A DNA stretch of 64,000 nucleotides from Minisyncoccota bacterium (GTDB taxonomy: Bacteria; Patescibacteriota; Minisyncoccia; Phycocordibacterales; UBA2100), in NCBI GenBank assembly GCA_965267345.1, contig OZ253947.1, forward strand, positions 573,043 to 637,042, written 5' to 3'. The position numbers and the translations under genes were made by a program. This document shows, one piece after another, positions 13,683-50,285 of this stretch (its first letter is position 1; the number at the start of each line of letters is the position of its first letter). The notes below the pieces were generated by a model. It made no database searches and was not told the DNA's origin. It worked only from the letters and a program-made list of their open reading frames with translations.

Positions 13683-13720
13683 CACACCGCCCGAACGCAC
13701 GAGTGCGTTCGGGCGGTGTG
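13683..13720. terminator. 16-18 bp perfect hairpin 3' of tRNA-Ser
   Basis: CACACCGCCCGAACGCAC/GTGCGTTCGGGCGGTGTG. Confidence 0.55.
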
Positions 13721-13726
13721 CCCATG

Positions 13727-13809
13727 CGGAGGGAACAGGACTCGAACCTGCAAGGGCGTGAACCCGGCGGTTTTCAAGACCGCTGCCTTACCATTCGGCG
13801 CATCCCTCC
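13727..13809 (-). tRNA. tRNA-Ser (anticodon TGA)
   Basis: 83 nt with a long variable arm and anticodon loop CTTGAAA. No CCA. Confidence 0.85.
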
Positions 13810-13841
13810 ACGCGCAATACTACCAAAAACCGGCGACAATG

Positions 13842-14768: not shown

Positions 14769-15783
14769 ACGTATACTCTACAATAGCTGCTGCTAATTTT
14801 TTACTATCGTGTCGAATAAACGCCGGTGGTGCCGCGTGCGCTGCCGAGGGTGCATCGGTATCCGCAGCAGAGAGCAGATCACGTCCCACACACTCGTAGG
14901 CTCCTGTCTGCACCTCAGGCGCCACAAAGGCGCCCGCTCCCTCTTGTGCTTCATACCGTGCTCGGACTCGAGCATCGGGTTCTGTCGTGTTGTACACGAG
15001 TGCATCAATAGATCGATCGGGTATGTGTGCAGCAATAGCACGGACGTAGTCATCCGCGGAGAAACCGTCGGTGAGTCCCTTTTTATTGGTAAGGTTTGCC
15101 ACAACAACAATGCGTGCCGATGTGTCCCGCAGTGCCTGCGCCATCCCGCCCACTAACAGATTCGGAATAATGCTCCCGTACAAATCACCAGGACCGATTA
15201 CCACGACATGGGCACGGGTAAGTGCCGCGAGCGCCGCTGGGTTTGCGGTCACCGGTCGGTCGGGTGCAACAGCGCGCACACCAACAGACCGCACCTGCTC
15301 GTTGTCGTCAAGGTGGTTCTCGCCGTGCAGTACTGTTCCGTTACGCAGCGTCACCACCAGCTGCATATCCCCTTCCGTTACGGGGATCACGCGGCCGTAC
15401 ACATTCAAAATCTTTCCTGCAACGGCAACGGCGCGAGAAAAACTACCTGTTGTTTTCTCAAGCGCAGACAAAAACAAGTTACCCATGTTATGGCCTGCCA
15501 AACCTCCTTCAGAAAACCGATAGCTAAAAAGTTCGCGCACTTCAGTGGTCGAACGGGCCAATGCTGCAAGACACTGCCGTACGTCGCCGGGTGGCAATAC
15601 ACCCAACTCGTCACGCAGTACCCCCGTTGAGCCGCCGCTGTCAGACATCGCAACGATAGCTGAGATAGTCACCGGGTGCTCCTTAAGCCCCGACAGCAGC
15701 ACAAAACTCCCCGTGCCGCCGCCGATGGTAACGACATGCGGGCGCGTCCGACGCCGCGTGCGTGTTTTGTGTGTGTCTGTCAT
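14758..15783 (-). CDS. yvcK: YvcK/CofD-like (UPF0052) gluconeogenesis-factor family protein
   Basis: ..VVTIGGGTGSFVLLSGLK..AIVAMSDSGGSTG.. motifs. Confidence 0.85.
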   Translation of the reverse strand: MTDTHKTRTRRRTRPHVVTIGGGTGSFVLLSGLKEHPVTISAIVAMSDSGGSTGVLRDELGVLPPGDVRQCLAALARSTTEVRELFSYRFSEGGLAGHNMGNLFLSALEKTTGSFSRAVAVAGKILNVYGRVIPVTEGDMQLVVTLRNGTVLHGENHLDDNEQVRSVGVRAVAPDRPVTANPAALAALTRAHVVVIGPGDLYGSIIPNLLVGGMAQALRDTSARIVVVANLTNKKGLTDGFSADDYVRAIAAHIPDRSIDALVYNTTEPDARVRARYEAQEGAGAFVAPEVQTGAYECVGRDLLSAADTDAPSAAHAAPPAFIRHDSKKLAAAIVEYTYAP

Positions 15784-15806
15784 AGACGGCTATTCATGCC
15801 CCTCCA

Positions 15807-15841
15807 TTGAATCGCGAATCGCTTGTGGATACAATACGTCT
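15807..15841 (+). promoter_or_regulatory. sigma70-type promoter (TTGAAT-17-TACAAT) placing the TSS at or next to the pilin ATG (leaderless)
   Basis: Consensus-like -35 and -10 hexamers. Only 6 nt separate the -10 from the ATG and there is no Shine-Dalgarno sequence. Confidence 0.6.
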
Positions 15842-16261
15842 ATGAATACAGCGCGCCGGTATCGCGGCTTCACAATCATTGAACTCCTTGTCGTCATGGC
15901 CATTATTGCCATTTTGGCATCAGGTATGCTCGCCCTATTTACCTCAACACAAGAAAAGTCGCGTGATACACGGCGCATGGAAGATGTACGCGAGCTCCAG
16001 AAAGCACTGAGTCTCTACTACATCGACAACAACCAGTACCCTGCTGCAGCAAGCACCATTGATCTCACGGGGTCAGACAGTGTCTCAACCACGTTGGTAA
16101 ACGCCGGTACAATCCCCGCAATTCCGCGCGACCCAGTGACGCCAACGTATGAATATACCTACCAGAGCGCAAGTCCGGGCACGTACACCATTACCTTCTG
16201 TCTGGAGACCGACCGCATTCCAAATTACGCTGAAGGGTGTTCAAACACCGTTACCCCTTAA
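15842..16261 (+). CDS. type IV pilin (prepilin with class III signal peptide)
   Basis: MNTARRYRGFTIIELLVVMAIIAILAS..: a G/FTxxE prepilin peptidase site plus hydrophobic alpha1 helix. Start set at the ATG directly after the promoter. Confidence 0.8.
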   Translation: MNTARRYRGFTIIELLVVMAIIAILASGMLALFTSTQEKSRDTRRMEDVRELQKALSLYYIDNNQYPAAASTIDLTGSDSVSTTLVNAGTIPAIPRDPVTPTYEYTYQSASPGTYTITFCLETDRIPNYAEGCSNTVTP

Positions 16262-16272
16262 CGGATCGACGT

Positions 16273-16737
16273 ATGCCCCGCACCATTCGCTGGGAAGCGC
16301 ACGAACACGAACATGCTGACAAAAGCGCAGACTGGTTCTGGGCGCTCGGCATTATTGTGCTGTCAGGTGCCATCACCGCACTGCTGTTTGGCAATATTCT
16401 CTTTGCGATTCTGATTGTTATTGGCGGTGCCACCATGGGGCTGCTCGGCTCAACTCCCGCACGCGTGCGCCGCTTTGCGCTCACCCCACGCGGCATCATG
16501 ATTGACGACTCGCTCTACCCCTACCAAATGCTCGCCGCATTCTGGGTGCAGCACCCCACTGCGGATACTCCCGCGATGCTCATCGTTGATGCAAATCAAT
16601 TTTTAAGCCCCCACATGATTATTCCACTGGACGATAACGATCCTGATCTCGTACGTGAATACTTGCTCGATTTTCTCCCTGAAGAAGAGCTACACGAGCC
16701 ATTTGCTCAGCGTCTTGCTGAGATGTTTGGATTGTAG
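16273..16737 (+). CDS. hypothetical membrane protein downstream of the pilin gene
   Basis: Two TM helices and no identifiable domain. Start is uncertain. Confidence 0.4.
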   Translation: MPRTIRWEAHEHEHADKSADWFWALGIIVLSGAITALLFGNILFAILIVIGGATMGLLGSTPARVRRFALTPRGIMIDDSLYPYQMLAAFWVQHPTADTPAMLIVDANQFLSPHMIIPLDDNDPDLVREYLLDFLPEEELHEPFAQRLAEMFGL

Positions 16738-16883
16738 CAACGAACGAGGTGCGGCCTTTGTTTTGTTTTACGTTCAGGTGTCAGGTTACTAAACTCACTA
16801 CGTTCGTTAAGTACCTCCTGCCCGGGCTCGTCTTCCTCGCTCCATGTACGTCGCTCGGATATGACTCCTCCTCACAAAACTAC

Positions 16884-16908
16884 AAAACGAGGCGCAGGCC
16901 TCGTTTTG
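16884..16908. terminator. bidirectional terminator AAAACGAGGC-gcag-GCCTCGTTTT 3' of tRNA-Arg(GCG)
   Basis: Perfect 10-bp stem with A/T tracts. A degenerate second copy of the GTTTTGTTTTACGTT tail lies at about 16758-16775. Confidence 0.65.
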
Positions 16909-16919
16909 TTTTACGTTTT

Positions 16920-16991
16920 GTGCTCTCGCCAGGATTCGAACCTGGATCGCAAGCTCCGCAAGCTTGTATTCTATCCATTGAACTACGAGAG
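16920..16991 (-). tRNA. tRNA-Arg (anticodon GCG, as read from the sequence)
   Basis: 72-nt cloverleaf. Anticodon stem CAAGC/GCTTG with loop TTGCGGA, giving G34-C35-G36. No CCA. Confidence 0.7.
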
Positions 16992-17057
16992 CGCCTCGCG
17001 CACCGGCGCGACTCGCCTACTGTAGCAGACCCCGCGACGTCTGCCAACTACAATACA

Positions 17058-17077
17058 GCCAGTGGCGTACCACTGGC
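17058..17077. terminator. hairpin GCCAGTGG-cgta-CCACTGGC 3' of rpsT
   Basis: Seen in sequence. Confidence 0.5.
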
Positions 17078-17100
17078 GTGTGCATCAAAAGGAGTGCGTA

Positions 17101-17364
17101 TTACGCAACGCGTGCAATTGCTTGCGCGAGGCGTGATTTCTTGCGCGAGGCGGTGTTCGGCTTGATGATGCCGCGCTTCACCGCTTTGTCGATCGCCTTG
17201 TACGCTTCAGGAAGTGCTGCCGATGCACCTTTCGCATCTTTCTGTGCCACGTGTGTCTCAACTGCTTTGACTGATTCCTTCATGGCACGTAAGCGACGCA
17301 CGTTAAAAATGCGTCGACGCTCCGCCTGCTTTACTGATTTCTTTCCTGATTTCGTTGTTGCCAT
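17101..17364 (-). CDS. rpsT: 30S ribosomal protein S20
   Basis: MATTKSGKKSVKQAERRRIFNVRRLRAMK.. is an S20 N-terminus. Start trimmed from the track ORF. Confidence 0.85.
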   Translation of the reverse strand: MATTKSGKKSVKQAERRRIFNVRRLRAMKESVKAVETHVAQKDAKGASAALPEAYKAIDKAVKRGIIKPNTASRKKSRLAQAIARVA

Positions 17365-17430
17365 AACGGGAGGCATACTACTGCATTTTTCCGCTCAGCG
17401 CAACGGTATTCCGCTGCTCGGACACCTTCG

Positions 17431-17445
17431 TGGTATTATGCGCAC
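17431..17445 (+). promoter_or_regulatory. extended -10 promoter (TGgTATTAT) 6 nt upstream of the ruvA ATG; likely leaderless
   Basis: TGnTATTAT immediately before the start with no Shine-Dalgarno sequence. Confidence 0.45.
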
Positions 17446-18009
17446 ATGATCGGACACCTGCGTGGCACAGCGCTTATGAAAGACCCCGAATATCTCGTCG
17501 TCGACGTTGGCGGTGTCGGGTACCGCGTGCACGTCCTCCCTGACGTACTTGCCAACACACCCGAGCGCGGCGAGGTGCAGCTTTGGACACACATGGTCGT
17601 GCGCGAAAATGCCCACGAGCTCTATGGCTTTTCGCAGCACGAAGAATTGCGTTTTTTTGAGCTTCTCATTGGCGTGTCCGGCGTCGGCCCGAAATCTGCG
17701 CTATCGATTCTCTCACTCGCCGATGTAGCAACACTCACGAGCGCCATTGCGTCGGGTGACACGTCCTACCTCACGAAGGTTTCGGGTATCGGCGCCAAGA
17801 GTGCAAAAAAGATTGTGCTTGAGCTCAGCGACAAATTCGGTGGCGGGGCGCACGACCCGAGTTTGCAGGCGGATACCGACACCATCGATGCGCTCGTGGC
17901 AATGGGCTACTCACAGGCAGAGGCACGCGACGCACTCAAGCACGTCTCGCGTGAGATCACCGGCTCAAGCGCACGCTTGAAAGAAGCGCTCAAACAACTT
18001 GCCGCATAG
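17446..18009 (+). CDS. ruvA: Holliday junction branch migration protein RuvA
   Basis: MIGHLRGT.. N-terminal OB domain, HhH pairs (..LIGVSGVGPKSALSIL.., ..VSGIGAKSAKKIV..) and a C-terminal domain. Confidence 0.9.
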   Translation: MIGHLRGTALMKDPEYLVVDVGGVGYRVHVLPDVLANTPERGEVQLWTHMVVRENAHELYGFSQHEELRFFELLIGVSGVGPKSALSILSLADVATLTSAIASGDTSYLTKVSGIGAKSAKKIVLELSDKFGGGAHDPSLQADTDTIDALVAMGYSQAEARDALKHVSREITGSSARLKEALKQLAA

Positions 18010-18013
18010 ACGT

Positions 18014-19288
18014 ATGAAAGAACTCATCAAACGCCTCATTCCCCCATCGGTGCTTGCAGCGCTCTTGCCGCGCTACCATCGCGCACTGGCATCACTCGGC
18101 GCGATACTCTACGGGCATCCGTCACGACGCCTCAAAGTGGTTGCGGTCACCGGCACCAAAGGTAAATCAACCGTCACTGAGCTCGTAACAGCCATTCTTG
18201 AAGAACACGGCTACACCGTCGCCCTCGCCAGCACCATTCATTTTAAAATTGCAGGCCACACACAACCAAACAAGCTCAAGATGACCATGCCGGGGCGGTT
18301 TTTCTTACAGCGCTTTCTGCGCCGTGCCGTACTCGCCGGATGTGAGTGGGCGGTGATTGAAATGACCTCAGAAGGCGCGCGCCAGTTCCGCCATCTCGGC
18401 ATCGACATGGACGCACTGATATTCACCAACATTAGCCCTGAGCATATTGAGTCACACGGATCATTCGAGAACTACCTCGCCGCAAAACTCTCAATCGGCT
18501 GCGCGCTGGAGCAGTCCTGCAAGCGCCCACGCAGCATCATCGCAAATGCCGATGATGACCATGGCGCCGACTTTCTCGCGCTTCACGTTGATCACGCACT
18601 CCCCTTCTCGCGCGACGATGCACAGCCATACCACACGAGCGAAACCGGTACCGAGATCACCTTTCAGGGCACCACAATGACGTCGGTCAGTGCGGGAGAA
18701 TTCACCATCGACAACATGCTCGCCGCGGCAACATTTGCCTACCACGTTGGTATTGCACCTGAGACAATGCGCCGTGCATTTGAACGCACGCGCGTCATTC
18801 CGGGTCGGGTTGAACACATTGACGAAGGACAGGACTTTGACGTCGTCGTGGACTACGCACACACGGCCGACTCGCTCGAAAAACTCTACCGCGCCTTTCC
18901 CAACCGAACAAAGCTCTGTGTGTTGGGTAACACCGGCGGCGGTCGTGATACGTGGAAGCGTCCTGAGATGGGTGCCATCGCCGAAAAGTACTGTGAGCGC
19001 GTCATTCTCACTGACGAAGATCCGTATGACGAAGATCCGGAAAAAATTGTACGCGATATGGTGGCGGGCATGCAGCGCGAACCGACCATTGTCATGGATC
19101 GACGACGTGCCATCCGCTACGCACTTACTCTCGCGAATGAAGACAAAGGTGATCTCGTGTTGATTAGTGGTAAAGGAACTGACCCCTACATCATGCGCGC
19201 TCGCGGCACGCGCGAGCCATGGAGCGATGCGCGTGTCGCACGCGAGGAACTGCAGCGACTTCTTGGTAAATCCGATAGTGCCGTTTAG
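18014..19288 (+). CDS. murE: Mur ligase family protein, MurE-like (UDP-MurNAc-tripeptide synthetase)
   Basis: P-loop VTGTKGKST and the Mur ligase middle and C-terminal domains. It lacks the usual N-terminal domain length, so the specific substrate is unresolved. Confidence 0.7.
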   Translation: MKELIKRLIPPSVLAALLPRYHRALASLGAILYGHPSRRLKVVAVTGTKGKSTVTELVTAILEEHGYTVALASTIHFKIAGHTQPNKLKMTMPGRFFLQRFLRRAVLAGCEWAVIEMTSEGARQFRHLGIDMDALIFTNISPEHIESHGSFENYLAAKLSIGCALEQSCKRPRSIIANADDDHGADFLALHVDHALPFSRDDAQPYHTSETGTEITFQGTTMTSVSAGEFTIDNMLAAATFAYHVGIAPETMRRAFERTRVIPGRVEHIDEGQDFDVVVDYAHTADSLEKLYRAFPNRTKLCVLGNTGGGRDTWKRPEMGAIAEKYCERVILTDEDPYDEDPEKIVRDMVAGMQREPTIVMDRRRAIRYALTLANEDKGDLVLISGKGTDPYIMRARGTREPWSDARVAREELQRLLGKSDSAV

Positions 19289-19303
19289 TATGTAGGTATT
19301 CGT

Positions 19304-20221
19304 ATGTTCCGCGCCATTTTAACTGCAGCAGGTATCCTCATTCTCCTCGTCGGTGGATGGTACCTCGTGCAAGTATTTCGCACGGCAACGGTAACCACGA
19401 ATGCACCTACGCAGTCGTCGTTTTTTGGCTCAGGCTCGCTCGCTGACTTTGGTGCACAGCTCACTGACGGACTCGGCATCTACCGCGCCACAACTGAGCC
19501 ACCAATTGTGACCACCGATGAACTTGGTGAAATTTCCCCGTCGTCCGGTTTAGTTGAAATTGTCAAAAACAGCACACCACCATCACGGAGCGACGTGGCA
19601 CGCGAGTACGTGCTGCTGCGCGCTCGAGCAGATAACGCACAACCGGTTAATATCACCAACTGGTCGCTTCAGAGTATGATCAGTGACAGCTGGTTCTCTA
19701 TTCCCCAAGGTGTTCGTGTCTACCGTGCGGGTGAGGTAAATGAACTCCACGACATTTACCTGCGTCCGGGCGAAACGGCTATTGTGGCAACAAAATCGGC
19801 ACCGGTGGGTGTGGCATTTCGCGCAAATCGCTGTTCAGGTTTTTTGGGAAGCGTCCAAGAATTCGAGCCGAAACTCACGAGCACCTGTATTGCGCCACGC
19901 GAACTACTCCCCCCAACCGTTGCAAACATCACCACGTATGGCGAAGCGTGCGTGGACTTTGCGCAAACGTTTGACAGCTGTACGTATCTCACCAGTGCAA
20001 CACCCGGCTTCGACACTCTCTCACCCGCATGCCGTGAGTACCTCCAGCCACGTCTGACGTACAATTTCTGTCTCGATACCCACGCAGCCGACGAGAACTT
20101 CTTCGCCGACAGTCACTGGCGTGTCTTCCTCGGACGCCCAGACGTCATTTGGCGAGAACACTACGAAGTAATCCGCCTCCTCGACGCACAAGGACGTACC
20201 GTTGATGCGTTCCCCTACTAG
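19304..20221 (+). CDS. hypothetical secreted/anchored protein
   Basis: N-terminal TM helix and a Cys-containing C-terminal region. No assignable domain. Confidence 0.45.
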   Translation: MFRAILTAAGILILLVGGWYLVQVFRTATVTTNAPTQSSFFGSGSLADFGAQLTDGLGIYRATTEPPIVTTDELGEISPSSGLVEIVKNSTPPSRSDVAREYVLLRARADNAQPVNITNWSLQSMISDSWFSIPQGVRVYRAGEVNELHDIYLRPGETAIVATKSAPVGVAFRANRCSGFLGSVQEFEPKLTSTCIAPRELLPPTVANITTYGEACVDFAQTFDSCTYLTSATPGFDTLSPACREYLQPRLTYNFCLDTHAADENFFADSHWRVFLGRPDVIWREHYEVIRLLDAQGRTVDAFPY

Positions 20222-20688
20222 CGTAGTGCAAACAGCATAATACCTGCTGCAACACTCACGTTGAGTGATTCTTTTGTGCCGTATTGTGGAATTTCCGTGA
20301 TAGCGTCCACCTGCTGCAGGATATCTTCAGGGATGCCGCTCACTTCATTTCCAAGCACGAGCGCGATGCACTCGTGCGCTGCCGCCGCAATGGTGCGATA
20401 CGGGAGTGCACTCTGATGCTGTTCGAGTGCGACCGTGTAGTATCCGTCTACACGGAGCTCCGTAATGAGCGGTACCGTTTCGGGTACCACCTCCCACGCG
20501 ACCTGCTGTTCAGCACCAAGTGCTGTTTTAGCAATGTCTTTCTGGGCCCGCCCAAAACGATCAATCGGTGAGGGCGTATAGCCGCTCAGGTATACGTTCT
20601 GCACCCCTGCAGCGTCGGCGGTGCGAAAAATAGCCCCGACATTGTGCGTGCTGCGGATATTGTCGAGTATGAGCACAATCTCTGTCAT
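20218..20688 (-). CDS. SpoU-family (TrmH/TrmL-like) RNA 2'-O-methyltransferase
   Basis: Minimal SPOUT fold with ..LVLGNEVSGIPEDIL.. and ..ESLNVSVAAGIMLFAL.. motifs. Start trimmed to MTEIVLILDN. Confidence 0.8.
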   Translation of the reverse strand: MTEIVLILDNIRSTHNVGAIFRTADAAGVQNVYLSGYTPSPIDRFGRAQKDIAKTALGAEQQVAWEVVPETVPLITELRVDGYYTVALEQHQSALPYRTIAAAAHECIALVLGNEVSGIPEDILQQVDAITEIPQYGTKESLNVSVAAGIMLFALR

Positions 20689-20755
20689 GTGTGGCAATCC
20701 TAGCATTTGTCACTCAGATAACGCTACTCACGCGTGCATCTCATCAGGCACGCAC

Positions 20756-20843
20756 CTGTTTCGATTAATCGAAACAGAAACAGTGCCATGCAAAAAACGC
20801 AGCTAACTGGCATCATCACAGGTGTTTCGATTAATCGAAACAC
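20756..20843. promoter_or_regulatory. two 22-bp perfect palindromes (core GTTTCGATTAATCGAAAC) 66 bp apart; candidate dimeric-regulator operators
   Basis: The two sites are 20756-20777 CTGTTTCGATTAATCGAAACAG and 20822-20843 GTGTTTCGATTAATCGAAACAC. They lie in the intergenic region upstream of the SpoU gene. Confidence 0.55.
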
Positions 20844-20915
20844 TTCTTAGAATATGCGGAGTATGTGTAGTAAGTGGCACCCCTAGGTGCGCAGGCTGTC
20901 CAAACTCGCCGACCA

Positions 20916-20950
20916 AAAAGTATTTACGTAAATAGTTACGTAAATACTTT
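20916..20950. terminator. AT-rich hairpin AAAGTATTTACGTAA-atag-TTACGTAAATACTTT 3' of tRNA-Lys
   Basis: 13-bp stem followed by a U-run on the minus strand. Confidence 0.6.
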
Positions 20951-20980
20951 AGATGCCCTAACTCCGTTTTCTTTACGTTG

Positions 20981-21053
20981 TCCGCCCGGCAGGACTCGAA
21001 CCTGCGACCGTCGGCTTAAAAGGCCGCTGCTCTACCAACTGAGCTACGGGCGG
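20981..21053 (-). tRNA. tRNA-Lys (anticodon TTT)
   Basis: 73 nt with anticodon loop CTTTTAA and acceptor CCGCCCG/CGGGCGG. No CCA. Confidence 0.8.
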
Positions 21054-30047: not shown

Positions 30048-30477
30048 GGGAATATGCAATGCTACGTGTGTCGTCTCCACTATAGCCAAAATACACGTGC
30101 TGCGCATCCTCGGGGATCAATCCGGCAACATGTTCAGGCCACTCAATAACAATGAGCGTTTGTGGGTCGGCACATAGCGCCTCCCAGCCGAGTACCGCCA
30201 ACTCGCGGTCGGTTTCGAGACGATACGCATCAATGTGTATGAGATGAGCAAACGGCTGGTCAGTGAGCGTGTAGGCTTTCTGGATAATAAAGGTCGGGCT
30301 AATGACCGCCTCACGCACGCCAAGTGTCCGTGCCAGTGCCTGCACAAACGTGGTCTTCCCCGCCCCTAAGTCGCCGTGCAGTGCCACAACGGTCGCGTCG
30401 TCTCTGTGTGGCGTGAGCGAGCGAGCAAAACGCGCTGCTTCCTGTTGGAATGTCTCAAGTGTATATTTCTGCGCCAT
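30037..30477 (-). CDS. tsaE: tRNA threonylcarbamoyladenosine biosynthesis protein TsaE (P-loop ATPase YjeE)
   Basis: ..VVALHGDLGAGKTTFVQALAR.. Walker A and TsaE length. Confidence 0.8.
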   Translation of the reverse strand: MAQKYTLETFQQEAARFARSLTPHRDDATVVALHGDLGAGKTTFVQALARTLGVREAVISPTFIIQKAYTLTDQPFAHLIHIDAYRLETDRELAVLGWEALCADPQTLIVIEWPEHVAGLIPEDAQHVYFGYSGDDTRSIAYSHDG

Positions 30478-30526
30478 TAGCAGCTATTGTACACGTCTTC
30501 ATCTGTATGCACATGAGCGTGATAGA

Positions 30527-32239
30527 ATGGTGCCAATGGTTCAGTTTGATGACACCAAGCAGAACGAACGCCTCTCCGAACTGTACGAACAAGAAGAGGA
30601 AACGCTGGCACGCACCCTCTCGCAGAAGTACGGCGTTGAGTATGTGGACCTCACGCGCGTCTCGATCGACACTGATGCGCTGCGCCTCGTTACTGAAGAG
30701 CAGGCCCGAAAAGTTGAAATCGCACCGTTTCGCAAAATCGGCAAAAAGGTCTTTGTCGCTATGCGCGCGCCCAATCGCACCGACTCGCTCCAAGCCATTC
30801 AGGAAATTGAGCGCCTCGGCTACCAAACGCGTCTGTTTATGGTCTCAAGTGCCTCGTTGACGCATGCATGGGAACACTACGCCGATATTTCACGCGCCAC
30901 GGCCGCCGAAAGCGGCGTGCTGAACATCTCAACTGATGAAATTGCACGCATTCGCACTGAACTCAAACGCGTCGAAGACGTACAGGAAAACGTCGACGCC
31001 ACCATCAACAGCAAAAAAACGCACCGTGTGTCGCGCGTCCTTGAGGTACTCATCGGCGGCGGTTTGGCACTGTCAGCATCCGACATCCACATTGAGCCGG
31101 AAGAAGAAGCGGTACGGGTGCGCTTTCGCCTCGACGGTGTGCTGACCGACCTGCTCACCTTCGATCACGCTACAGCAAAGCTCCTGCTCTCACGCATTAA
31201 GCTGCTCTCCGGCCTGAAGTTGAATGTTAAAAATGCCGCCCAAGACGGCCGCTTTAGTGTTGATGTTGGCGACAGTGAGATTGAAATTCGTACCTCCATC
31301 ATTCCTGGAAACTACGGCGAAACTATCGTGCTTCGTCTGCTCGACCCATCAACCATCGGCCTGCCGCTCGAGGAGCTGGGTATGGACCCATTCCTGATGG
31401 AGCTCTTTCAAGCAGAGATCAAAAAGCCAAACGGCATGATTCTCAACACCGGTCCGACGGGTTCGGGTAAAACCACGACGCTCTACGCATTCCTACGGGC
31501 GGTGAACAAACCGGGTATCAAAATCATCACACTGGAAAACCCTGTCGAGTACCACCTCTCGGGCGTTGTGCAGACACAAGTTGAAAAAGACTACACTTTC
31601 GCCTCGGGGCTGCGCAGTATTTTGCGCCAAGATCCCGACATCATTATGGTGGGTGAGATCCGCGATCCGGAAGTGGCTTCCACAGCCGTGCACGCCGCCC
31701 TGACAGGACACCTCGTCTTCTCAACGCTGCACACCAACAACGCTGCGGGCACCTTCCCACGCCTCATCGACATTCAGGTGCAGCCGGAAATCATCGGATC
31801 AGCCCTCAATATGGCTATGGCACAGCGGCTCGTGCGCAAACTCTGTCAGGAGTGCAAGAAAAAGGTGCCGCTTGATGCAGCTGCCCGTACCCACGTCCAG
31901 CGGCTGCTCACTGATATCCCCCGCCCTGAGGACTTGCCGAAAAACAAAGATAGCATGTGGGTCCCCGTCGGCTGCGACGCCTGCGGTGGCTCAGGATTCA
32001 AGGGGCGCTTGGCAGTCTTTGAAGCTATTTTAATGGACGAAAACGTCGAAAAGGCAGTCCGCAACCGACCGAGTGAACTCGACATCTGGCGCGCCGCCCG
32101 CCCGCAGGGCATTCGTCGCCTCGCTGAAGACGGTATCGACAAAGTGCTCCGCGGTATCACCTCTCTTGATGAATTAGCACGTGTTGTCGACATTGAAGAC
32201 GAAGACATGCTCCGTATGAAAGGTGTGGATAACGTGTAG
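30527..32239 (+). CDS. pilB: type IV pilus assembly ATPase PilB (GspE family secretion ATPase)
   Basis: Walker A NTGPTGSGKTTT, Asp box, His box and a tetracysteine motif (CQEC..CDACGGSG). Confidence 0.85.
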   Translation: MVPMVQFDDTKQNERLSELYEQEEETLARTLSQKYGVEYVDLTRVSIDTDALRLVTEEQARKVEIAPFRKIGKKVFVAMRAPNRTDSLQAIQEIERLGYQTRLFMVSSASLTHAWEHYADISRATAAESGVLNISTDEIARIRTELKRVEDVQENVDATINSKKTHRVSRVLEVLIGGGLALSASDIHIEPEEEAVRVRFRLDGVLTDLLTFDHATAKLLLSRIKLLSGLKLNVKNAAQDGRFSVDVGDSEIEIRTSIIPGNYGETIVLRLLDPSTIGLPLEELGMDPFLMELFQAEIKKPNGMILNTGPTGSGKTTTLYAFLRAVNKPGIKIITLENPVEYHLSGVVQTQVEKDYTFASGLRSILRQDPDIIMVGEIRDPEVASTAVHAALTGHLVFSTLHTNNAAGTFPRLIDIQVQPEIIGSALNMAMAQRLVRKLCQECKKKVPLDAAARTHVQRLLTDIPRPEDLPKNKDSMWVPVGCDACGGSGFKGRLAVFEAILMDENVEKAVRNRPSELDIWRAARPQGIRRLAEDGIDKVLRGITSLDELARVVDIEDEDMLRMKGVDNV

Positions 32240-32333
32240 CGCGACGGTGTGAGCTTCGTATACTAGCAGTAGTGTCACGGTAGAACCACGGATCGGCCGT
32301 GGCCGCTCCTTGCATAAGGAGCTTAGTGTGTGA

Positions 32334-32366
32334 GAGAAAACGCGGCTGTTGGAGCCGCGTTTTCTC
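32334..32366 (+). terminator. intrinsic terminator GAGAAAACGCGGCT-gttgg-AGCCGCGTTTTCTC 3' of pilB
   Basis: Perfect 14-bp stem. Confidence 0.6.
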
Positions 32367-32504
32367 GTGCGTGGTCCCTGCGCACCACGCTCCCCACCCT
32401 GTCAAGTTTCAAAACGCGTCGTGCATGCTATGGTGGAGATGGCTACCGGTGTAGCAAAAACACCGAGAGCTGGTCTTCGGTGTTCTTTGTATTCGGGAAT
32501 ACTA

Positions 32505-32699
32505 TTCTCTAAACGACACCCCTCACTTCAAACGCCAGTATGGCGCTTGAAGCCAGCACAGATACTGTGCATTGGCGTTTCAAGTGAGGGGCCAAGAACG
32601 CATCTGAGGATAGGCGCAGCGTAAACCACGTCGTCCTCGAAGCGACTTGTGTTGGTGTGGACCTCAATCGTTTAGAGAATACTGTTCCCGAAATCGAAT
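32505..32699. repeat. 195-bp nested inverted-repeat element (MITE-like, or structured RNA)
   Basis: A 22-bp outer IR (GGGAATACTATTCTCTAAACGA / TCGTTTAGAGAATACTGTTCCC, 2 mismatches) encloses an 18-bp IR (CCCCTCACTTCAAACGCC / GGCGTTTCAAGTGAGGGG, 1 mismatch) and a 6-bp hairpin. It sits in the 500-bp pilB-ruvB spacer. Confidence 0.55.
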
Positions 32700-32745
32700 A
32701 TGTAAAATAACCTCAGTCGCAGAACACTACCACACATGCTTTTGT

Positions 32746-33741
32746 ATGTCAATAGATTCAAAGCCTCAACAAAGCGACGATGAGAACGTATCGTTTCTCG
32801 ATAAAACACTCCGTCCCAGCAAGTGGGACGAGTATATTGGTCAATCGCGCGTGAAAGAGAACCTGTTCATCCTCCTCTCAGCAGCTCGCGAGCGCGAACA
32901 ACCACCGGAACACATCCTCTTTTACGGCCCGCCGGGACTCGGCAAGACAACACTCGCCCACCTCATCGCCCACGAGTCGGGCAGTCAGATTCGCATCACG
33001 TCAGGACCGGCCATTGAGCGTGTGGGAGACCTTGCCTCAATTCTCACGAACCTCGGCGAACGCGACATTCTCTTCATCGACGAGATCCACCGCTTAAACA
33101 AAAACATCGAAGAGGTCCTCTACCCTGCTATGGAGTCGGGCGTCCTCGACATAATTATCGGCAAAGGACCATCGGCGCGCACCATTCAGCTCGAGCTCCC
33201 GCCGTTTACCCTCATTGCCGCCACTACGCAGGTGTCGGGCATCTCGAGCCCGCTGCGGAGTCGTTTCTCGGGCGGCACCTTCCGCCTCGACTACTACACC
33301 GATGATGAGATTCGCGACATTCTCCGCCGCTCCGCCGCCATTTTAGGCGTCACGATAGAAGACGAGGCGCTCGAGGAAGTGGCAAAGCGCAGCCGCTTCA
33401 CGCCGCGTACCGCAAACTTCCTGCTGAAACGCTGCCGCGACTTCGCCCAAGTGCATAAAGGCAAACTCGACAAAGCAACCGTCAACAAAGCACTCGAGCT
33501 GCTCGATATTGACGAGCTCGGGCTCAATCATAGCGATCGCGAGATCCTGCGTACCATTATCGAAAAATTCAACGGCGGCCCTGTCGGACTCAAGACACTC
33601 GCCGCAGCGGTTTCAGAAGAACAGAGCACGATCGAAGACGTACACGAGCCGTACCTCATGCAACTCGGCCTGCTCGAGCGCACACCACGCGGTCGCGTGG
33701 CGACGCCACGCGCCTACGATCACCTTGGTCTGAGAGTTTAG
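32746..33741 (+). CDS. ruvB: Holliday junction DNA helicase RuvB
   Basis: AAA+ domain with [11 protein letters not shown] Walker A, sensor motifs and a C-terminal winged helix. Start trimmed to MSIDSKPQQ. Confidence 0.9.
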
Positions 33742-43972: not shown

Positions 43973-46435
43973 ATGCGCCTCATAAAACGGATTCCGATTA
44001 AACAGGTGCTCCTCGTGAGTATCGCGGCATCGCTGCTTATTGCCAGTGCGATTTTTGTGTGGGTCGCCACACTTGAAATACCGACACTCGACGGTTTTGA
44101 AGAACGCACCATCACTCAGTCAACAAAAATCTATGATCGCACTGGTGACGTGCTCCTCTTTGATCTCCACCAAGACATTCGCCGCACTGTCGTGCCGCTT
44201 GAGGATATGTCACGCCACCTCAAAAATGCCACCATCGCGATTGAGGACGCTGAGTTTTATGAGCACAACGGCATTCGCCCGATGCGCACACTGAAAGCCG
44301 TGTACGATAACGTCGTTACGGGCGACTTGCTCGGCGGACAGGGTGGCTCAACTATCACACAGCAAGTGGTGAAGAATACGCTCCTCACGACTGACAAGAC
44401 AATTACACGTAAAGTAAAAGAGTGGATCCTCGCGCTAAAAATTGAGCAGATTCTCGCCAAAGACGACATCCTCGAGCTCTACCTCAACGAAGTACCCTAC
44501 GGCGGTAACATTTACGGTGCAGAAGAGGCGGCGAAACATTTCTTCGCTACATCGGCGGAAGAGCTCACACTGGTTGAGTCGGCGTACCTTGCGGCACTTC
44601 CGCAGGCACCGACGCGGTACTCGCCCTACGGCAATCACACCGACTTACTCGAGGAGCGTAAAAACCGCGTACTGCAGCAAATGCTCGAGAACGGTTTCAT
44701 CTCACCCGCTGAGTACGAAGAGGCCGTCGCAGCCGAGGTAGTCTTTGAACAGTACGGCGACACAAACATCAAAGCGCCGCACTTTGTGTTCTACATTCGT
44801 GAACAGCTCGAGGAAACGTACGGCCGCGAAGCGCTCTACGAAACAGGGCTGAAGGTTATCACAACCCTCAACTATGACCTCCAGCAGGCAGCTGAGGAGG
44901 TTGTTACTGAGTACGCGTACCAAAACGAAGAAGATTTTAACGCTGAAAATGCAGCGTTAGTTGCGATTGACCCGCAGACGGGTCACATTCTGGCGATGGT
45001 CGGTTCGCGCAACTACTTTGATGAAGACATCGACGGAAAATTTAATGTGGCAACCGCGCATCGCCAACCCGGTTCAACCTTTAAACCAATTGTCTACGCC
45101 ACCGCTTTTGAGCAAGGTTTCACCCCTGAAACCGTTGTTTTTGATGTGCCGACGCAGTTCTCAGTCAATTGTGAGCCAACGAACTTCAGCAGCACTGATG
45201 GCTGCTACTCTCCTGTGAACTACGACGGTGTGTTTCGTGGCCCGATGACCTTTCGTGACGCACTAGCGCAGTCGATTAACATCCCTGCGGTAAAGGCACT
45301 GTACTTGGCCGGCATCGGAAATGCGCTGACCAATGCGCGAGAGCTTGGTATTTCAACACTTACGAAAGCGCCGCGTGACTACGGACTTCCCCTCGCGCTT
45401 GGTGGTGGTGAAGTCTCACTACTTGAGCTCACGAATGCGTATGCTGCGCTCGCAAATGACGGGGTGCGGCACGAACATACCGGCATTATTCGCGTCGAAG
45501 ACGCTGCCTCGGGTGAGGTGCTTGAGGAGTACGATGAAGAGGATGTGGGTGATCAAGTTATCGCCTCTCGTGCGGCACGCCTCACCACAAGCGTGCTTAC
45601 CGACATCCAAGCGCGTGAACCGGCGTATGGTCGTAACTCGTTCTCGTTTGGGAGACAGGCGGTAGGCGTGAAAACTGGTACGACCAACGACTACCGTGAT
45701 GTGTGGATTATGGGCTACACACCGCGCATCGCTGTCGGTACGTGGGGTGGTAACAATGACAACTCCCCTATTGTAAAGCGTGTTGCAGGATTCGTACTGG
45801 CGCCAATGTGGCGTGCATTTATGGACGAGGCACTCACTATTGTGCCGTATAGTGAATTCTCTGCACTTGAGGTAGACGAAGAAGAAACCGCACTCAAGCC
45901 GGTGCTGCGAGGATTCTGGCAAGGCGCAGCGACCACAACACCTACCACGCAACCAAGTGTGCACTCTATCCTGCACTGGGTTGATAGGAGCAACCCACGC
46001 GGACCGGTGCCGAGTGATCCATCTCGCGATCCGCAGTATGTAAACTGGGAAACTGCTGTGCGTATCTGGGCACAAGAAAATGCACCACAGCTCGTCGGTA
46101 GTGGGACATTTCCAACACCTCAATTCCCACAAAACGGTACAACGCCGACAACCACCCAAGGTGAGCCATTTAGTCTCACCTACCCAGCACAGAACATGCA
46201 GCATCGAGCAGGAACACCACTTACGGCAACAGTTGGTGCGCGTGCTGATATTGAATTAGTCTCAGTGGAGTACTACCTTAATGGCGCCTACATGGGTTCG
46301 GCAACCGGCGCGCCGTTCTCAATCTCACTCGTGCCTCAGTACACCGGCACGGGTGCACACACACTCACGGCAGTTGGCTACACTAAAAATGCAGAAACTT
46401 TTACGCAGCAGGTGACATTCCATGTGACACAGTAG
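43973..46435 (+). CDS. class A penicillin-binding protein (glycosyltransferase + transpeptidase)
   Basis: GT51 motifs (EDAEFYEHNGI, ..GGSTITQQ..), transpeptidase STFK, SxN and KTGT motifs, plus a C-terminal extension. Confidence 0.9.
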   Translation: MRLIKRIPIKQVLLVSIAASLLIASAIFVWVATLEIPTLDGFEERTITQSTKIYDRTGDVLLFDLHQDIRRTVVPLEDMSRHLKNATIAIEDAEFYEHNGIRPMRTLKAVYDNVVTGDLLGGQGGSTITQQVVKNTLLTTDKTITRKVKEWILALKIEQILAKDDILELYLNEVPYGGNIYGAEEAAKHFFATSAEELTLVESAYLAALPQAPTRYSPYGNHTDLLEERKNRVLQQMLENGFISPAEYEEAVAAEVVFEQYGDTNIKAPHFVFYIREQLEETYGREALYETGLKVITTLNYDLQQAAEEVVTEYAYQNEEDFNAENAALVAIDPQTGHILAMVGSRNYFDEDIDGKFNVATAHRQPGSTFKPIVYATAFEQGFTPETVVFDVPTQFSVNCEPTNFSSTDGCYSPVNYDGVFRGPMTFRDALAQSINIPAVKALYLAGIGNALTNARELGISTLTKAPRDYGLPLALGGGEVSLLELTNAYAALANDGVRHEHTGIIRVEDAASGEVLEEYDEEDVGDQVIASRAARLTTSVLTDIQAREPAYGRNSFSFGRQAVGVKTGTTNDYRDVWIMGYTPRIAVGTWGGNNDNSPIVKRVAGFVLAPMWRAFMDEALTIVPYSEFSALEVDEEETALKPVLRGFWQGAATTTPTTQPSVHSILHWVDRSNPRGPVPSDPSRDPQYVNWETAVRIWAQENAPQLVGSGTFPTPQFPQNGTTPTTTQGEPFSLTYPAQNMQHRAGTPLTATVGARADIELVSVEYYLNGAYMGSATGAPFSISLVPQYTGTGAHTLTAVGYTKNAETFTQQVTFHVTQ

Positions 46436-46437
46436 TG

Positions 46438-46698
46438 TTAGTAAATAGCGCTGATGCAGTACGGATCCCCCAGATCTTTTTGCACACGTTCGAGAATATC
46501 GCTCTGGTGAAGGTGTATTTCGCTTTTAATCGTTGATGATGTTGAGAGGCGTACGGTTTTGTTACGTATATGCACCTGATCCTCAGGTATATCTATTTCG
46601 AGCACGTCACGAACTGCGGTGATAAACGCCTCGCGCACAACACGCTCAGGTGCTTTAAGATTTGTGTACCGCTGGAGAAAACCGCTGACTAAACGCAT
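46438..46698 (-). CDS. dciA: DUF721/DciA-like protein
   Basis: 86 aa directly downstream of dnaN, the characteristic DUF721 position. Confidence 0.55.
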   Translation of the reverse strand: MRLVSGFLQRYTNLKAPERVVREAFITAVRDVLEIDIPEDQVHIRNKTVRLSTSSTIKSEIHLHQSDILERVQKDLGDPYCISAIY

Positions 46699-46701
46699 AT
46701 A

Positions 46702-47814
46702 CTAGCGATTCATTGGCATCACCAAGTAGGTAAACGATTGATCGCCGACTGGGGTAATAATGAGTGGTTTTCCGACGCCGGCAAATGAGAGCGTGAGGCT
46801 GTCAGTCGGTATCGACTGGAGACAGTCGGCAACGTAGCGGTGGTTGAAGCTGATATCAAGCTCTGCACCAGTGAGTGTCGCCTCGAGTGAGTCAAATACC
46901 TCGCCAACATCTGCATTACGTGCGCTCATGGTGAATGTTTTCTTTTCTGGATACACATGAAGAGTGATCTGTCCGAATTTATCTGAAAAAATATGTGCTT
47001 TTTTGAGCGTATTTGCAAAATCCTCTTTTAAAAGTACGGCTTCAGTAGTGGTGTCTTTCGGAAGAATACTTCGATAGTCAGGGAATGAGCCGTCAATAAT
47101 ACGGGAGGTAATAAAGAGTGTATCCGTCTGTACTGAAAACTGATTCTCATCAATAAATACGATAAGTTCTTCGTCTGTTTTAGTATCGAGGATACGCATT
47201 AACTCAGTGGTATTTTTTGCAGGCATAATGACTGTAGGAATGTCACTATCTTCTTCACCGACGCGGTGTGGGATTTTCTTTTCTGCAAGACGAAATGAGT
47301 CGGTTGCGACAAAAAAGAGGTGATCATCCTCATGGTACATATACACACTCGCGAGTTCAGGCTTAATGAGTGAGGTTGAGGCGCTATAGAGAACCGAGCG
47401 CACACCGCTTATAAGCTTTGTCTGCTGTATTTTATACGCGGGAGCTGTTTCAGGACGTGGAATTGAAGGAAAATCCTCATATGGCACTGTTTTGATTGTT
47501 GTTTTTGCACCACCTGACGTCACCACAATCGTCCCGTCACGCTCCTCAATAGTAAGTGTGGTCGCTGATGGTGATGTTTTAAGTGTTGAGAGAAGTGTGT
47601 GTGCAGGAACAGCAACCACCCCCTCCTTCTCTACATCAACAGAAAAGGTTTTCTCAATACCGATTTCAAGGTTTGTTGCTTTTAATACAACTGTGTCTTT
47701 TTGCACATCGAATACCACACAACGAAGTACCGGAAGTGTTGCTGACTGAGCGACAATACGCGACGCGGTGTCCACAGCAGTTTCAATATCTTTTTTTAAA
47801 CACTTTAATTTCAT
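46702..47814 (-). CDS. dnaN: DNA polymerase III beta sliding clamp
   Basis: 370-aa three-domain clamp. Position downstream of dnaA. Confidence 0.9.
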   Translation of the reverse strand: MKLKCLKKDIETAVDTASRIVAQSATLPVLRCVVFDVQKDTVVLKATNLEIGIEKTFSVDVEKEGVVAVPAHTLLSTLKTSPSATTLTIEERDGTIVVTSGGAKTTIKTVPYEDFPSIPRPETAPAYKIQQTKLISGVRSVLYSASTSLIKPELASVYMYHEDDHLFFVATDSFRLAEKKIPHRVGEEDSDIPTVIMPAKNTTELMRILDTKTDEELIVFIDENQFSVQTDTLFITSRIIDGSFPDYRSILPKDTTTEAVLLKEDFANTLKKAHIFSDKFGQITLHVYPEKKTFTMSARNADVGEVFDSLEATLTGAELDISFNHRYVADCLQSIPTDSLTLSFAGVGKPLIITPVGDQSFTYLVMPMNR

Positions 47815-48060
47815 AGTTTTTTATTTTTTTCTTACGAACACCCTTATTAGTGCTGTGTGTATGTGCAGAAACACGTAATCCTCTGTGTTTCTGCACTCTC
47901 ACCACTAGAACTCGTGTGTGCTATCTGTGAACAAAGAAGGAACAGAACTGGGTATAACAACAGTGTATACCATTTGGGTGCATGAGGTGGGTATAACTCC
48001 TATGGTAGTACCCATGATTATCACCATCACACCCCAACACTTATACACAGAGAACTGAAC
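47815..48060. other. oriC part 1: AT-rich unwinding element plus DnaA-box-like 9-mers between dnaA and dnaN
   Basis: The T-rich stretch TTTTTATTTTTTCTTA sits next to the dnaN start. TTATACACA at 48041-48049 is a 1-mismatch DnaA box. Confidence 0.65.
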
Positions 48061-49425
48061 CTAATTGTGTATAAGTGTTCGGACATGATTAACCTCTTGG
48101 TCGAGGATTGGGTCAATCTTTATCTCCCCTTTCACCTTCTCACATGAGTGAATTACTGTTGTGTGGTCACGGCCACCAAGTTTTTCTCCAATACTTGGAT
48201 AGGAAATACCAAAATCTTCACGCAGGATGTACATAATGACCTGTCGCGGACGCACCACCTCTTTCTTACGCGTCTTTTTATAGATGTTTTGCTCATCTAC
48301 TTCGTAGTATTCTGCGATTTTCTTCACAACATCAACCACCGAAATATTTTTATTCGGTTTTGTGGTGTTCTTCACCACATTTTGTACCTCCTGTGTACTG
48401 AGCTCCTTACCCTTAAGTTGTGTTTTGCACATAAGGGTGTTTAAAAGCCCCTCAAGCTCACGAATGTTACCTGGAACTTCTTTTGCCATGTACTCAATTA
48501 CGTCTTGGGGCACTAAAAAGTCGTGCTGCCGTGCTTTCTCGCGCAAAATTTCAATACGTGACTCCACATCAGGGTTTGGGATCTCAGCGATCATACCGGC
48601 GCTAAACCGCCCGCGTAGGCGGTCTTCGAGTCCAAGAAGGTTATTCGGGTGCTTATCTGACGAGAAGACAATTTGTTTGTTGTTGTCGTAGAGTGCATTA
48701 AAGAGATGGAAAAGCTCTTCTTGGGTGCGCTCTTTATCGGCAACAAATTGAATGTCGTCCATGATTAGTACGTCATACTGACGGTACTTGTCTTTAAAGG
48801 TATTTCCCTTCCCTGTTTTAATCGCATTAATGAAGTCCATCACAAATCGCTCCGAGGTGACGTAAAACACCTTCCGATTCGAGTTGGTTTTCTTTAAATG
48901 GTTGCCAATCGCCTGTATCAGGTGGGTTTTACCATGTCCTGTCGCACCGTAAATAAAAAGTGGGTTGTAGGTCAGGCCTGGATTTTGAATAACCGCCTGA
49001 GCTGCGGCGTGCGCGAGCTGGTTGAAGGGGCCGACAACAAACGTATCAAAAGTGTAGCGCGGGTTAAGGTTGTCACGTCGGTCAATAAACATGTCCTGCA
49101 ACGGCATCTGATTCTGCGGCGTGGTGGTCTGTGTTGGAATACGTTGTTCCCCTGCAGCCTTTTTTGCCGCATTCTTCGTCACCACATACTCGATACCGCG
49201 GATTCTATCTTCGAATCCACGCAGTGTTTTTAAAAGAAACTTGTGATGCTTCTCTTGGAGCCAGTCTTTAACAATTTTATTTGGAACGCCGATAAATACG
49301 ATGCCCGCGTCGCGCTTAATGATGATGGTGTCCTTAAACCATGTGCGAAAACTTGCCTCTGATGTGTTCATTTCAATATGAACGAGCGTGTTTTGCCACA
49401 ATTCTTGGTCACTCAACATACGCAA
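48061..49425 (-). CDS. dnaA: chromosomal replication initiator DnaA
   Basis: AAA+ Walker [11 protein letters not shown], sensor motifs and a C-terminal DnaA-box-binding HTH (..[10 protein letters not shown]..). Confidence 0.95.
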
Positions 49426-49706
49426 AGTTTCCGTATTATATACAAGCTCTGTGGATAAGTAAAAAATGCCTCAAAATGCACTTCTATGTGGATAGTGTGG
49501 GGATAAGTAATGACGTGTACCCTACCTCACGTTTATCGCAGGTGGTGCTTACGGACAAAACTCTTAACGAGAGAGCCGTTGATACACCTGTTGCGGCGTT
49601 TATCATGACTCCGCCGACAAAAAGCAGCTTTTACATGTATGTGTATAGTAGTATCTCTATCCACAGAGTATTGCTTTTTGTCTGTTTTTGCGTAGTATGT
49701 GTCCCC
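49426..49706. other. oriC part 2: DnaA-box cluster upstream of dnaA
   Basis: Perfect TGTGGATAA at about 49450. Near-consensus boxes TGTGGATAG and TGGGGATAA at about 49487-49505. CTATCCACA at about 49666. Confidence 0.7.
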
Positions 49707-49847
49707 ATGTCAACAAAGCGAACATATCAACCAAAAAAGCGAAAGCGCCAGCGAAAGCACGGCTTTCTTTCGCGCACACTTACTGCAGCAGGTCGTCGCG
49801 TGCTACGCGCACGCCGTCGTCGCGGGCGCAAGTCTCTCGCGGTGTAG
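49707..49847 (+). CDS. rpmH: 50S ribosomal protein L34
   Basis: [46 protein letters not shown]. The track ORF was a longer upstream frame. Confidence 0.9.
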
Positions 49848-49907
49848 GAATCGTTTTGTTACCTCTCTTTCAAACAGTGTACGGGTACCGTACACTGTTT
49901 TGGTATA

Positions 49908-50234
49908 GTGCCTATGCTCAGTAAGAAGAACCGCGCCACAACACACGACATACGCGAAACACTCGGCCGACGGCATACGACACGCCACGGCTCGCACCTG
50001 TCACTGCGCTACTCACACGAGCACATCGATGCGCCACTGTGTAGTGTTGTTGTCTCAAAACGCGTCGCTCGCACCGCTGTCGCTCGCAATGCGCTCAAGC
50101 GCAAGCTCCGCGCCGCACTCAAAGAGATCGAGCACCTTCTCCCCCGCCGCACCATCATCGTGTACGCAAAAACAACAGCGCGGGATTTGTCGGTGCGGGA
50201 AGCCGCGACGGAGATACTCAACCTACTCGCGTAG
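49908..50234 (+). CDS. rnpA: ribonuclease P protein component
   Basis: Basic 108-aa protein following rpmH, with ..KRVARTAVARNALKRKLR.. RnpA motif. Confidence 0.8.
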   Translation: MPMLSKKNRATTHDIRETLGRRHTTRHGSHLSLRYSHEHIDAPLCSVVVSKRVARTAVARNALKRKLRAALKEIEHLLPRRTIIVYAKTTARDLSVREAATEILNLLA

Positions 50235-50285
50235 AGCGTTTACTTCGCCCATACTCTGCGCTACTATGCGTCGGTACTCACTACT

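Follow-up and report, generated by a model that had tools for sequence, protein, structure and literature searches.

A candidate family of structured non-coding RNAs encoded opposite pilB and ruvB in Paceibacteria

Among the structured non-coding RNAs (ncRNAs) of bacteria, 6S RNA (SsrS; RF00013) measures about 150-200 nt, ends in a long closing stem, has an unpaired centre that possibly holds small hairpins and a variable terminal arm, is driven by a strong housekeeping-type promoter, and is conserved in shape only. The raiA, ROOL and OLE motifs (Breaker/Weinberg-type motifs; families in Rfam 15) come from long structured intergenic regions and are known by covariation and position, being lineage-restricted and orphan in function. 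Y RNA and YrlA are most conserved in the stem formed by their ends, the rest consisting of variable hairpins, and cis-antisense RNAs (plasmid CopA/RNAI-type or 'excludon'-like) are structured transcripts that lie opposite to their neighbours. A large part of bacterial diversity belongs to the Candidate Phyla Radiation (CPR), whose genomes are tiny, so that each conserved element is likely to matter; to our knowledge, almost nothing is known about CPR ncRNAs. Here, we describe an element in the 506-bp spacer between pilB (30302-32239, plus strand) and ruvB (ATG at 32746, plus strand) of a Minisyncoccota bacterium, in a 64,000-nt stretch of contig OZ253947.1 (assembly GCA_965267345.1) that we call the window. 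We show that the element recurs at the same position in about 200 related genomes with compensatory changes in its helices, and that it is very probably a minus-strand gene for a structured ncRNA of a new family.

The nested inverted repeats of the window copy are more than chance. The original prediction described an outer repeat of 22 bp from about 32505 and an inner one of 18 bp, and both are present: the outer repeat comprises 25 nt with 92% complementarity (32492-32516 and 32668-32692) and the inner one 19 nt with 95% (32519-32537 and 32573-32591), and the limits of the element are corrected to 32492-32692. Each arm has its partner as sole match across the 64-kb window, against chance expectations of 0.00 and 0.02 matches. 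The small hairpin described inside the inner repeat also exists, as two tip hairpins (32541-32555 and 32556-32570), and the internal asymmetric segment credited with a 5-bp stem is real (32593-32666) and forms a composite stem-loop that goes beyond that stem. Folding of 226 nt around the element yielded -103.2 kcal/mol on the plus strand (z = -9.2) and -102.5 kcal/mol on the minus strand (z = -9.9); none of 200 shuffles matched either value.

Weak blastn and nhmmer matches of the spacer fell immediately upstream of ruvB in four loci selected by their RuvB, and these four regions folded into the same architecture from different sequences. A covariance model (R1) built from 11 aligned sequences (alignment A1), with the plus strand modelled, gave a single match in the window and in each of 79 of the 80 RuvB-selected loci, in the same place and orientation, at 40-148 bits. 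The 80 loci belong to CPR metagenome-assembled genomes (MAGs) labelled Paceibacterota, Nomurabacteria, Campbellbacteria, Taylorbacteria, Zambryskibacteria, Parcubacteria or Minisyncoccia, the RuvB of which is 68-77% identical to that of the window. A second search, independent of any protein, used a DNA pattern made from the RNA positions alone and retrieved 120 metagenome contigs; pilB upstream and/or ruvB downstream, in the same orientation, were found in 118 of them, and the two contigs without these neighbours were not confirmed by the covariance model. R1 matched 81 of 100 pattern-selected metagenome loci at E < 1e-15, and the pattern had no match in viral contigs. R1 matched once per locus across the locus stretches scanned, which amount to 0.73 + 0.68 Mb (~1.4 Mb) of related DNA. 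All relatives are MAGs or metagenome contigs, and the distribution identifies a predicted single-copy, orthologous pilB-ruvB element in ~200 uncultivated Parcubacteria/Paceibacteria (CPR) genomes.

Two loci inform on the relationship between the element and ruvB. The sole RuvB-selected locus without the RNA gene (L058, 3939-3955) has ~12 nt from the pilB stop to the ruvB ATG, which we read as a clean loss (deletion) of the gene; its ruvB still begins with ATGTCAA. At another locus (L044), a 319-aa open reading frame (2868-3827, with a HExxH metalloprotease-like motif) stands between the RNA promoter and ruvB, and because both the RNA and its promoter are retained there despite this insertion, the RNA gene is independent of ruvB. 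The N-terminus of RuvB at this locus differs from that of the others.

On the RNA strand the elements are arranged, 5' to 3', as P1, P4, P3, a short UUA-containing linker, P2 and the 3' arm of P1. We examined pairing in an alignment of 148 sequences (A5), counted hairpins folded alone in 140 relatives, and counted promoters in 152 loci. In A5, 94.2% of 5412 pairing cells form standard pairs in the minus-strand reading and double changes occur in 31 of 38 pairs; in 500 column shuffles none of five measures was reached, and moving the 3' partners by 1-3 columns lowered pairing to 37-54%. These results show that a four-helix architecture (P1, P4, P3, P2) is maintained by compensatory changes, the support for P4 and for two parts of P3 (its base P3a and an extra hairpin, P3c) coming from per-sequence folding rather than covariation counts. 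The structured ncRNA offered as one option in the original prediction is in this respect borne out by covariation in about 150 relatives.

The closing stem P1 is ~25 bp long, with changes on both sides among relatives in 23 of its 25 pairs, and 94.8% of its cells pair; its inner 18 bp (CAUAAAUCUCUAAGCAAU / AUUGCUUAGAGAUUUAUG) are nearly invariant. From its variable base P3a, P3 runs through an invariant AGGA/UCCU helix, a C/UA internal loop and four covarying pairs to an invariant UGG/CUG segment (tandem U-G/G-U). Its second and third helices pair in 99.1% and 93.5% of cells, with compensatory changes in 4 of 7 helix-3 pairs, and the AGGAC, UGGU, CUGG and AUCCU segments are nearly invariant throughout the 148 sequences. 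The apical loop of P3 ranges from 5 to 45 nt, and P3c occurs in 88 of 140 sequences. P2 was found in 136 of 140 relatives, adjoining the 3' arm of P1, and all three of its modelled pairs covary. When the P4 segment is folded by itself, 131 of 140 relatives are predicted to form a hairpin with 3 bp or more. Family members measure 122-201 nt (median 163.5), the window copy being the longest of the 148 at 201 nt, and the distance between the P1 arms varies from 95 to 175 bp. The shortest members, of 122-127 nt, have neither P2 nor P4 (L083 5887-6013, L166 1689-1810, L109 3211-3333, L137 1177-1299) and are plain rods in which an internal bubble of about 7 and 11 nt separates P1 from P3, the most 6S-like shape in the family. 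The earlier idea of a long rod-like RNA holds for these minimal relatives; the others form a four-way junction. Seen against the family, the inner repeat of the window is a lineage-specific enlargement of the variable hairpin P2, and the asymmetric segment of about 70 nt is the conserved core, P3 plus P4, to which the outer stem also belongs.

The family further indicates which strand is the RNA. On the minus strand the helices contain 740 G:U pairs, a number that falls to 468 once two invariant G-U pairs are set aside, versus 109 A:C combinations, the counterparts of G:U on the plus strand; read as plus-strand RNA, 82.6% of the pairing cells remain standard, and 123 sequences favour the minus strand versus 12 the plus strand, a bias seen in both major subgroups. 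On the ruvB side of the element, TTGACA-N16-18-TAnnnT was found on the minus strand in 149 of 152 loci and on the other strand in 1 of 152. The spacer is 17 nt in 131 of the 149 loci, TG stands at -15/-14 in 138, and the commonest -10 is TATACT, all of which describe a putative consensus sigma-70 promoter (TTGACA-N17-TGnTAnnnT) reading into the element. On the far side, P1 on the minus strand leads straight into a U-run in 54 of 148 loci, and in another 48 a further hairpin with U-run lies within ~110 nt, adding up to a U-run or terminator in 102 of 148 loci. In the window this role falls to the second short hairpin noted in the original prediction, which is real, shifts to 32456-32487 and would be the terminator of the RNA; it also scored as terminator-like on the plus strand. 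The wobble counts show what appears to be selection for pairing on the minus strand, antisense to pilB and ruvB, and that this same strand carries its own promoter and terminator marks, at the sequence level, a stand-alone ncRNA gene. It is the family, through three independent lines of evidence (wobble asymmetry, promoter and termination), and not the window copy that assigns the strand. The window transcript would start near 32717, 31 nt separating the outer end of P1 from the -10 box (median among relatives, 48 nt), and would extend to ~32455, giving a primary transcript of roughly 260 nt (Table 1).

Table 1. Coordinates of the predicted RNA gene and of adjoining features in the window.
Feature	Position	Strand	Remarks and basis
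-35 box, TTGACA	32747..32752	-	reverse complement of TGTCAA in ruvB codons 1-3 (ATG TCA A)
Extended -10, TGG TAGTGT	32724..32732	-	17 nt downstream of -35 box
5' leader, unstructured, not conserved	32693..32717	-	inferred from -10 position
P1 5' arm (outer inverted repeat, right arm)	32667..32692	-	repeat finder, fold, covariation
P4, small weak 3-bp hairpin	32654..32663	-	5' junction strand; fold
P3, conserved arm, apical loop UUUACG	32593..32649	-	no P3c in window; relatives, covariation, fold
P2, inner 18-19-bp inverted repeat with two tip hairpins	32518..32592	-	75 nt, versus ~20-25 nt in most relatives
P1 3' arm (outer inverted repeat, left arm)	32492..32517	-	repeat finder, covariation, fold
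Intrinsic terminator, stem ACACCGA/UCGGUGU then UUUUUGC	32456..32487	-	repeat finder, fold
pilB terminator, symmetric bidirectional hairpin with A-run and T-run	32334..32366	+	14-bp perfect stem; outside RNA family
ruvB coding sequence	32746..33741	+	codons 1-3 bear the -35 box of the RNA

The predicted promoter is superimposed on the start of ruvB. In nearly all relatives ruvB begins NTG TCA A, the start codon being ATG in 123, GTG in 9, TTG in 8 and CTG in 2, and the -35 box falls on codons 1-3 in about 96% of loci; we attribute the conservation of these bases to their being the image of the opposing TTGACA box. In 54 loci (including L032, L008, L015 and L061), a ruvB-sense extended -10 of the TGnTATAAT type (TGCTATAAT) lies between P1 and the -10 of the RNA, creating face-to-face promoters with a modal 24-26 nt between the -10 hexamers, the transcripts of which would overlap by ~11 nt. 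In other lineages, a ruvB-sense promoter-like site (TGTCAATTGCTT-N16-18-GAGTAGGAT) is located on the pilB side and would read through the element (L003 3875-3910, L057 3793-3830). Its counterpart in the window is TGC-TATGGT at 32406-32434, and 66 of 148 loci have a match on the pilB side when the pattern is relaxed, versus 23 for the opposite strand. This arrangement of sites makes competition between the promoters of the RNA and of ruvB likely. TAGCAT, 12 nt before the ruvB ATG, had been considered as a -10 of ruvB and is reinterpreted as the image of the minus-strand TTGACA-N17-TGnTAnnnT promoter.

We then compared the element with described RNAs. A gathering-threshold scan of the whole window with Rfam 15 returned seven tRNAs only and nothing in the spacer, and a permissive Rfam 15 scan (E up to 10, both strands) of the spacer, locus L023 and 16 further loci gave unrelated sub-threshold matches, none of them recurring at the element, so that the covariance check called for by the original prediction yielded no family. 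Its statement that tmRNA and RNase P signatures are lacking agrees with the Rfam result for the spacer and with ARAGORN, which found 7 tRNAs and no tmRNA in the window. A full-text literature search for an RNA at ruvB or for ncRNAs of Parcubacteria/Patescibacteria found no description. We class the element as a new RNA family within a known kind, the stand-alone structured bacterial ncRNA.

Its nearest company is instructive. Like raiA, ROOL and OLE, the element is known by covariation and position, is lineage-restricted, has an orphan function and comes from a long structured intergenic region; unlike them, with which it has no sequence or structure relation, it is found in Paceibacteria (CPR) in a fixed pilB-ruvB neighbourhood. 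It resembles Y RNA and YrlA in being most conserved in the end-formed stem and variable in the remaining hairpins, whereas the stem has no bulged-helix Ro site, the RNA has neither a tRNA-like T-loop nor an Rfam match, and no rsr is adjacent, the neighbours being pilB and ruvB. Retron ncRNA (msr-msd) was rejected: despite the terminal repeat, all loci have pilB and ruvB as flanking genes, with no reverse transcriptase gene next to the element, and belong to the syntenic core rather than to a defence island. A hammerhead was likewise dismissed because CUGAGGA...GAA in the window becomes CUAAGGA in relatives, losing the essential G. Weak likenesses to what we take to be the GTPase-centre 'GCUUAGAAG' and sarcin-ricin 'ACGAGAGGAC' sequences of 23S rRNA are short and not family-conserved. 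The RNA of the signal recognition particle (SRP; 4.5S) was excluded because the P3 apex is variable (its loop of 5-45 nt often with an extra hairpin) and because Parcubacteria have been reported without ffh and ffs (PMC4508563); there was also no Rfam SRP match.

What the RNA does can be proposed with less assurance than what it is. The long perfect P1 helix would clamp both ends of the RNA and would probably either stabilise it or be trimmed by RNase III, of which a perfect helix of more than 22 bp is a classical substrate; where a U-run directly adjoins it, P1 would double as a terminator stem. Through P1, the irregular and invariant P3 arm, with its AGGA/UCCU helix, C/UA loop and tandem U-G/G-U, would be exposed for binding by a conserved partner that is most likely a protein; P2, P4 and P3c would be dispensable decorations. 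The RNA might then act in trans, as a housekeeping-type ribonucleoprotein or a protein-sequestering RNA, and RNA polymerase on its strong promoter at the ruvB start would compete with ruvB transcription as a side effect of the layout. The sequences of the P1 core and P3 loops are nearly invariant in lineages with RuvB only 58-77% identical, and since a purely antisense role would not require this invariance, a trans partner, most likely a protein, is its best explanation. A search near the locus for trans targets of the P1 arms gave 6 off-element 11-mer matches versus ~18 expected by chance. Protein binding in trans, judged on its own, we regard as possible, somewhat short of probable; the combined reading, namely a stand-alone structured ncRNA gene of a new family that binds protein in trans and has a promoter competing with that of ruvB, seems to us moderately probable.

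Several observations weigh against this combined reading. The -10 hexamer of the window, TAGTGT, is weak, agreeing with TATAAT at 3 of 6 positions and missed by a simple promoter scan, and the window stems alone, with 1 G:U versus 3 A:C and near-equal fold energies, do not discriminate between strands. A simple scan found no terminator in 46 of 148 relatives, and the start, end and abundance of the transcript are ones that we infer from sequence. The plus strand is probably also transcribed in part of the family, and the loss at L058 may mean that the RNA gene is perhaps not indispensable. A protein-binding RNA does not usually contain an 18-bp duplex that is both fully paired and near-invariant, a feature that the combined reading leaves unexplained, and the neighbouring pilB and ruvB give no functional hint, the partner protein being hypothetical.

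Other explanations draw on the same observations. A 6S-like RNA would use P1 as a mimic of the downstream duplex, the junction strands (with optional P4 and P2) as the open-promoter bubble and P3 as a mimic of the upstream duplex, and would sequester sigma-70 RNA polymerase until freed by templated synthesis of a product RNA. The size, the ends paired in a long closing stem, the length-variable apical part, the rods with small bubbles among minimal relatives, and a strong sigma-70 promoter of its own, which suggests abundance, all recall 6S RNA, and the searchable literature yielded no 6S report for Patescibacteria. However, none of 18 sequences matched a 6S model even at E up to 10, the majority of members form four-way junctions in which the covarying P2 directly abuts P1, and the minimal forms have a smaller bubble than known 6S RNAs such as those of E. 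coli and B. subtilis. The terminal arm is also short where P3c is missing, and the invariance of the closing stem and P3 loops is foreign to an RNA conserved in shape only, making a 6S-like function unlikely. We rate as similarly unlikely a purely local function, in which a cis-antisense or transcription-interference device would set ruvB expression (and pilB read-through), by transcription itself or by duplex formation with ruvB-sense transcripts, the structure serving only stability and fast pairing. The element does resemble cis-antisense RNAs in being structured and opposite to its neighbours, with a promoter on a neighbour's start and, in a subclade, convergent promoters ~25 nt apart, and the pilB-side ruvB-sense sites of the window and other lineages would transcribe the whole element as antisense. 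Yet sense and antisense are complementary by construction and would not need invariant loops and an invariant P1 across the class; the RNA is intact apart from ruvB at L044; and overlap is minimal where a ruvB promoter can be placed. The overlap with the start codons may also be a frozen accident, as ATGTCAA persists at L058 without the RNA.

If the plus strand were functional instead, the element would be a structured 5' leader of the ruvB mRNA, riboswitch-like or protein-binding. It always lies upstream of ruvB in the same orientation, many loci have ruvB-sense promoter-like sites upstream of it, and pairing in the window copy is slightly better on the plus strand. We nevertheless find this very unlikely, given a G:U/A:C asymmetry of 4-7 to 1 for the minus strand, a consensus promoter that points the opposite way, and a 25-bp closing stem atypical of riboswitch aptamers; in the Nomurabacteria-like subclade (54 loci), moreover, the ruvB-sense -10 lies downstream of the element, which places it outside the leader, and the plus strand has an A-run where the minus strand has its U-run. 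The reading least favoured, and extremely improbable, is a function at the DNA level: a miniature inverted-repeat transposable element (MITE) or another kind of mobile element, a cruciform, a palindrome that binds protein, an origin-related site, or stacked terminators only. Like a MITE, the element is ~200 bp, non-coding and bounded by 25-bp terminal inverted repeats, and the original prediction considered it MITE-like; this is refuted by one copy per locus, always at the orthologous pilB-ruvB position, by the finding of neither arm elsewhere in the 64-kb window, and by the lack of a target-site duplication there (the junctions read TTTGTA/TTCGGG and CCCGAA/ATCGAA). The varying distance between the arms, the covariation of P2 and P3, the failure of the pattern to match viral contigs, and the strand-asymmetric G:U pairs, which have no DNA-level explanation, are equally at odds with it. 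Terminator-like hairpins do adjoin the element on the pilB side, but an assembly of overlapping terminators, as the original prediction also allowed, would not account for 201 nt with four covarying helices and invariant loops. As to an origin-related site, a perfect DnaA box (TTATCCACA, minus strand) lies at 32224-32232, within the last pilB codons, and 18 of 148 relatives have perfect boxes next to the RNA gene (0.31 per kb vs 0.10 per kb elsewhere). This idea was rejected, the boxes being limited to those 18 loci and the probable origin lying elsewhere in the window, as described below.

Returning to the ncRNA gene, a ~160-nt RNA with covariation support on par with curated Rfam families, a consensus promoter, about 200 examples, a fixed address and no known relative provides annotators with a new family to model and experimentalists with a concrete target. 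It is also an example of an uncommon arrangement, the first three codons of a gene serving at the same time as the -35 box of an opposing promoter. A bolder version, which we consider rather unlikely though worth stating, is that the RNA is a subunit of an unrecognised housekeeping ribonucleoprotein, or a regulator that sequesters a protein or the polymerase, and that it occurs in all Paceibacteria, a lineage of minimal genomes that is reported to lack the SRP, and nowhere else. If that were true, a sequence-specific P1/P3 partner without counterpart in model bacteria would define a new functional RNA class rather than a divergent 6S, SRP or Y RNA.

The pilB-proximal half of the spacer (32240-32455) holds four hairpins in a row (32286-32302, 32305-32321, 32334-32366 and 32367-32390), with fold z-scores of -3.4 on the plus and -4.9 on the minus strand. 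The third is the terminator that had been predicted after pilB, which its perfect stem confirms (Table 1). In relatives where pilB abuts the RNA gene, the counterpart of this half, including the pilB terminator, is missing.

Elsewhere in the window, all seven tRNA genes are on the minus strand, scattered over 4691-21053, with pilB and ruvB on the plus strand. GC content drops to 0.46 at 46000-52000 and the cumulative GC skew has its minimum near 51 kb; DnaA boxes (TTATNCACA) occur at 48041 (+), 48066 (-) and 49450 (-), and a replication origin is probably located near 48-51 kb of the window.

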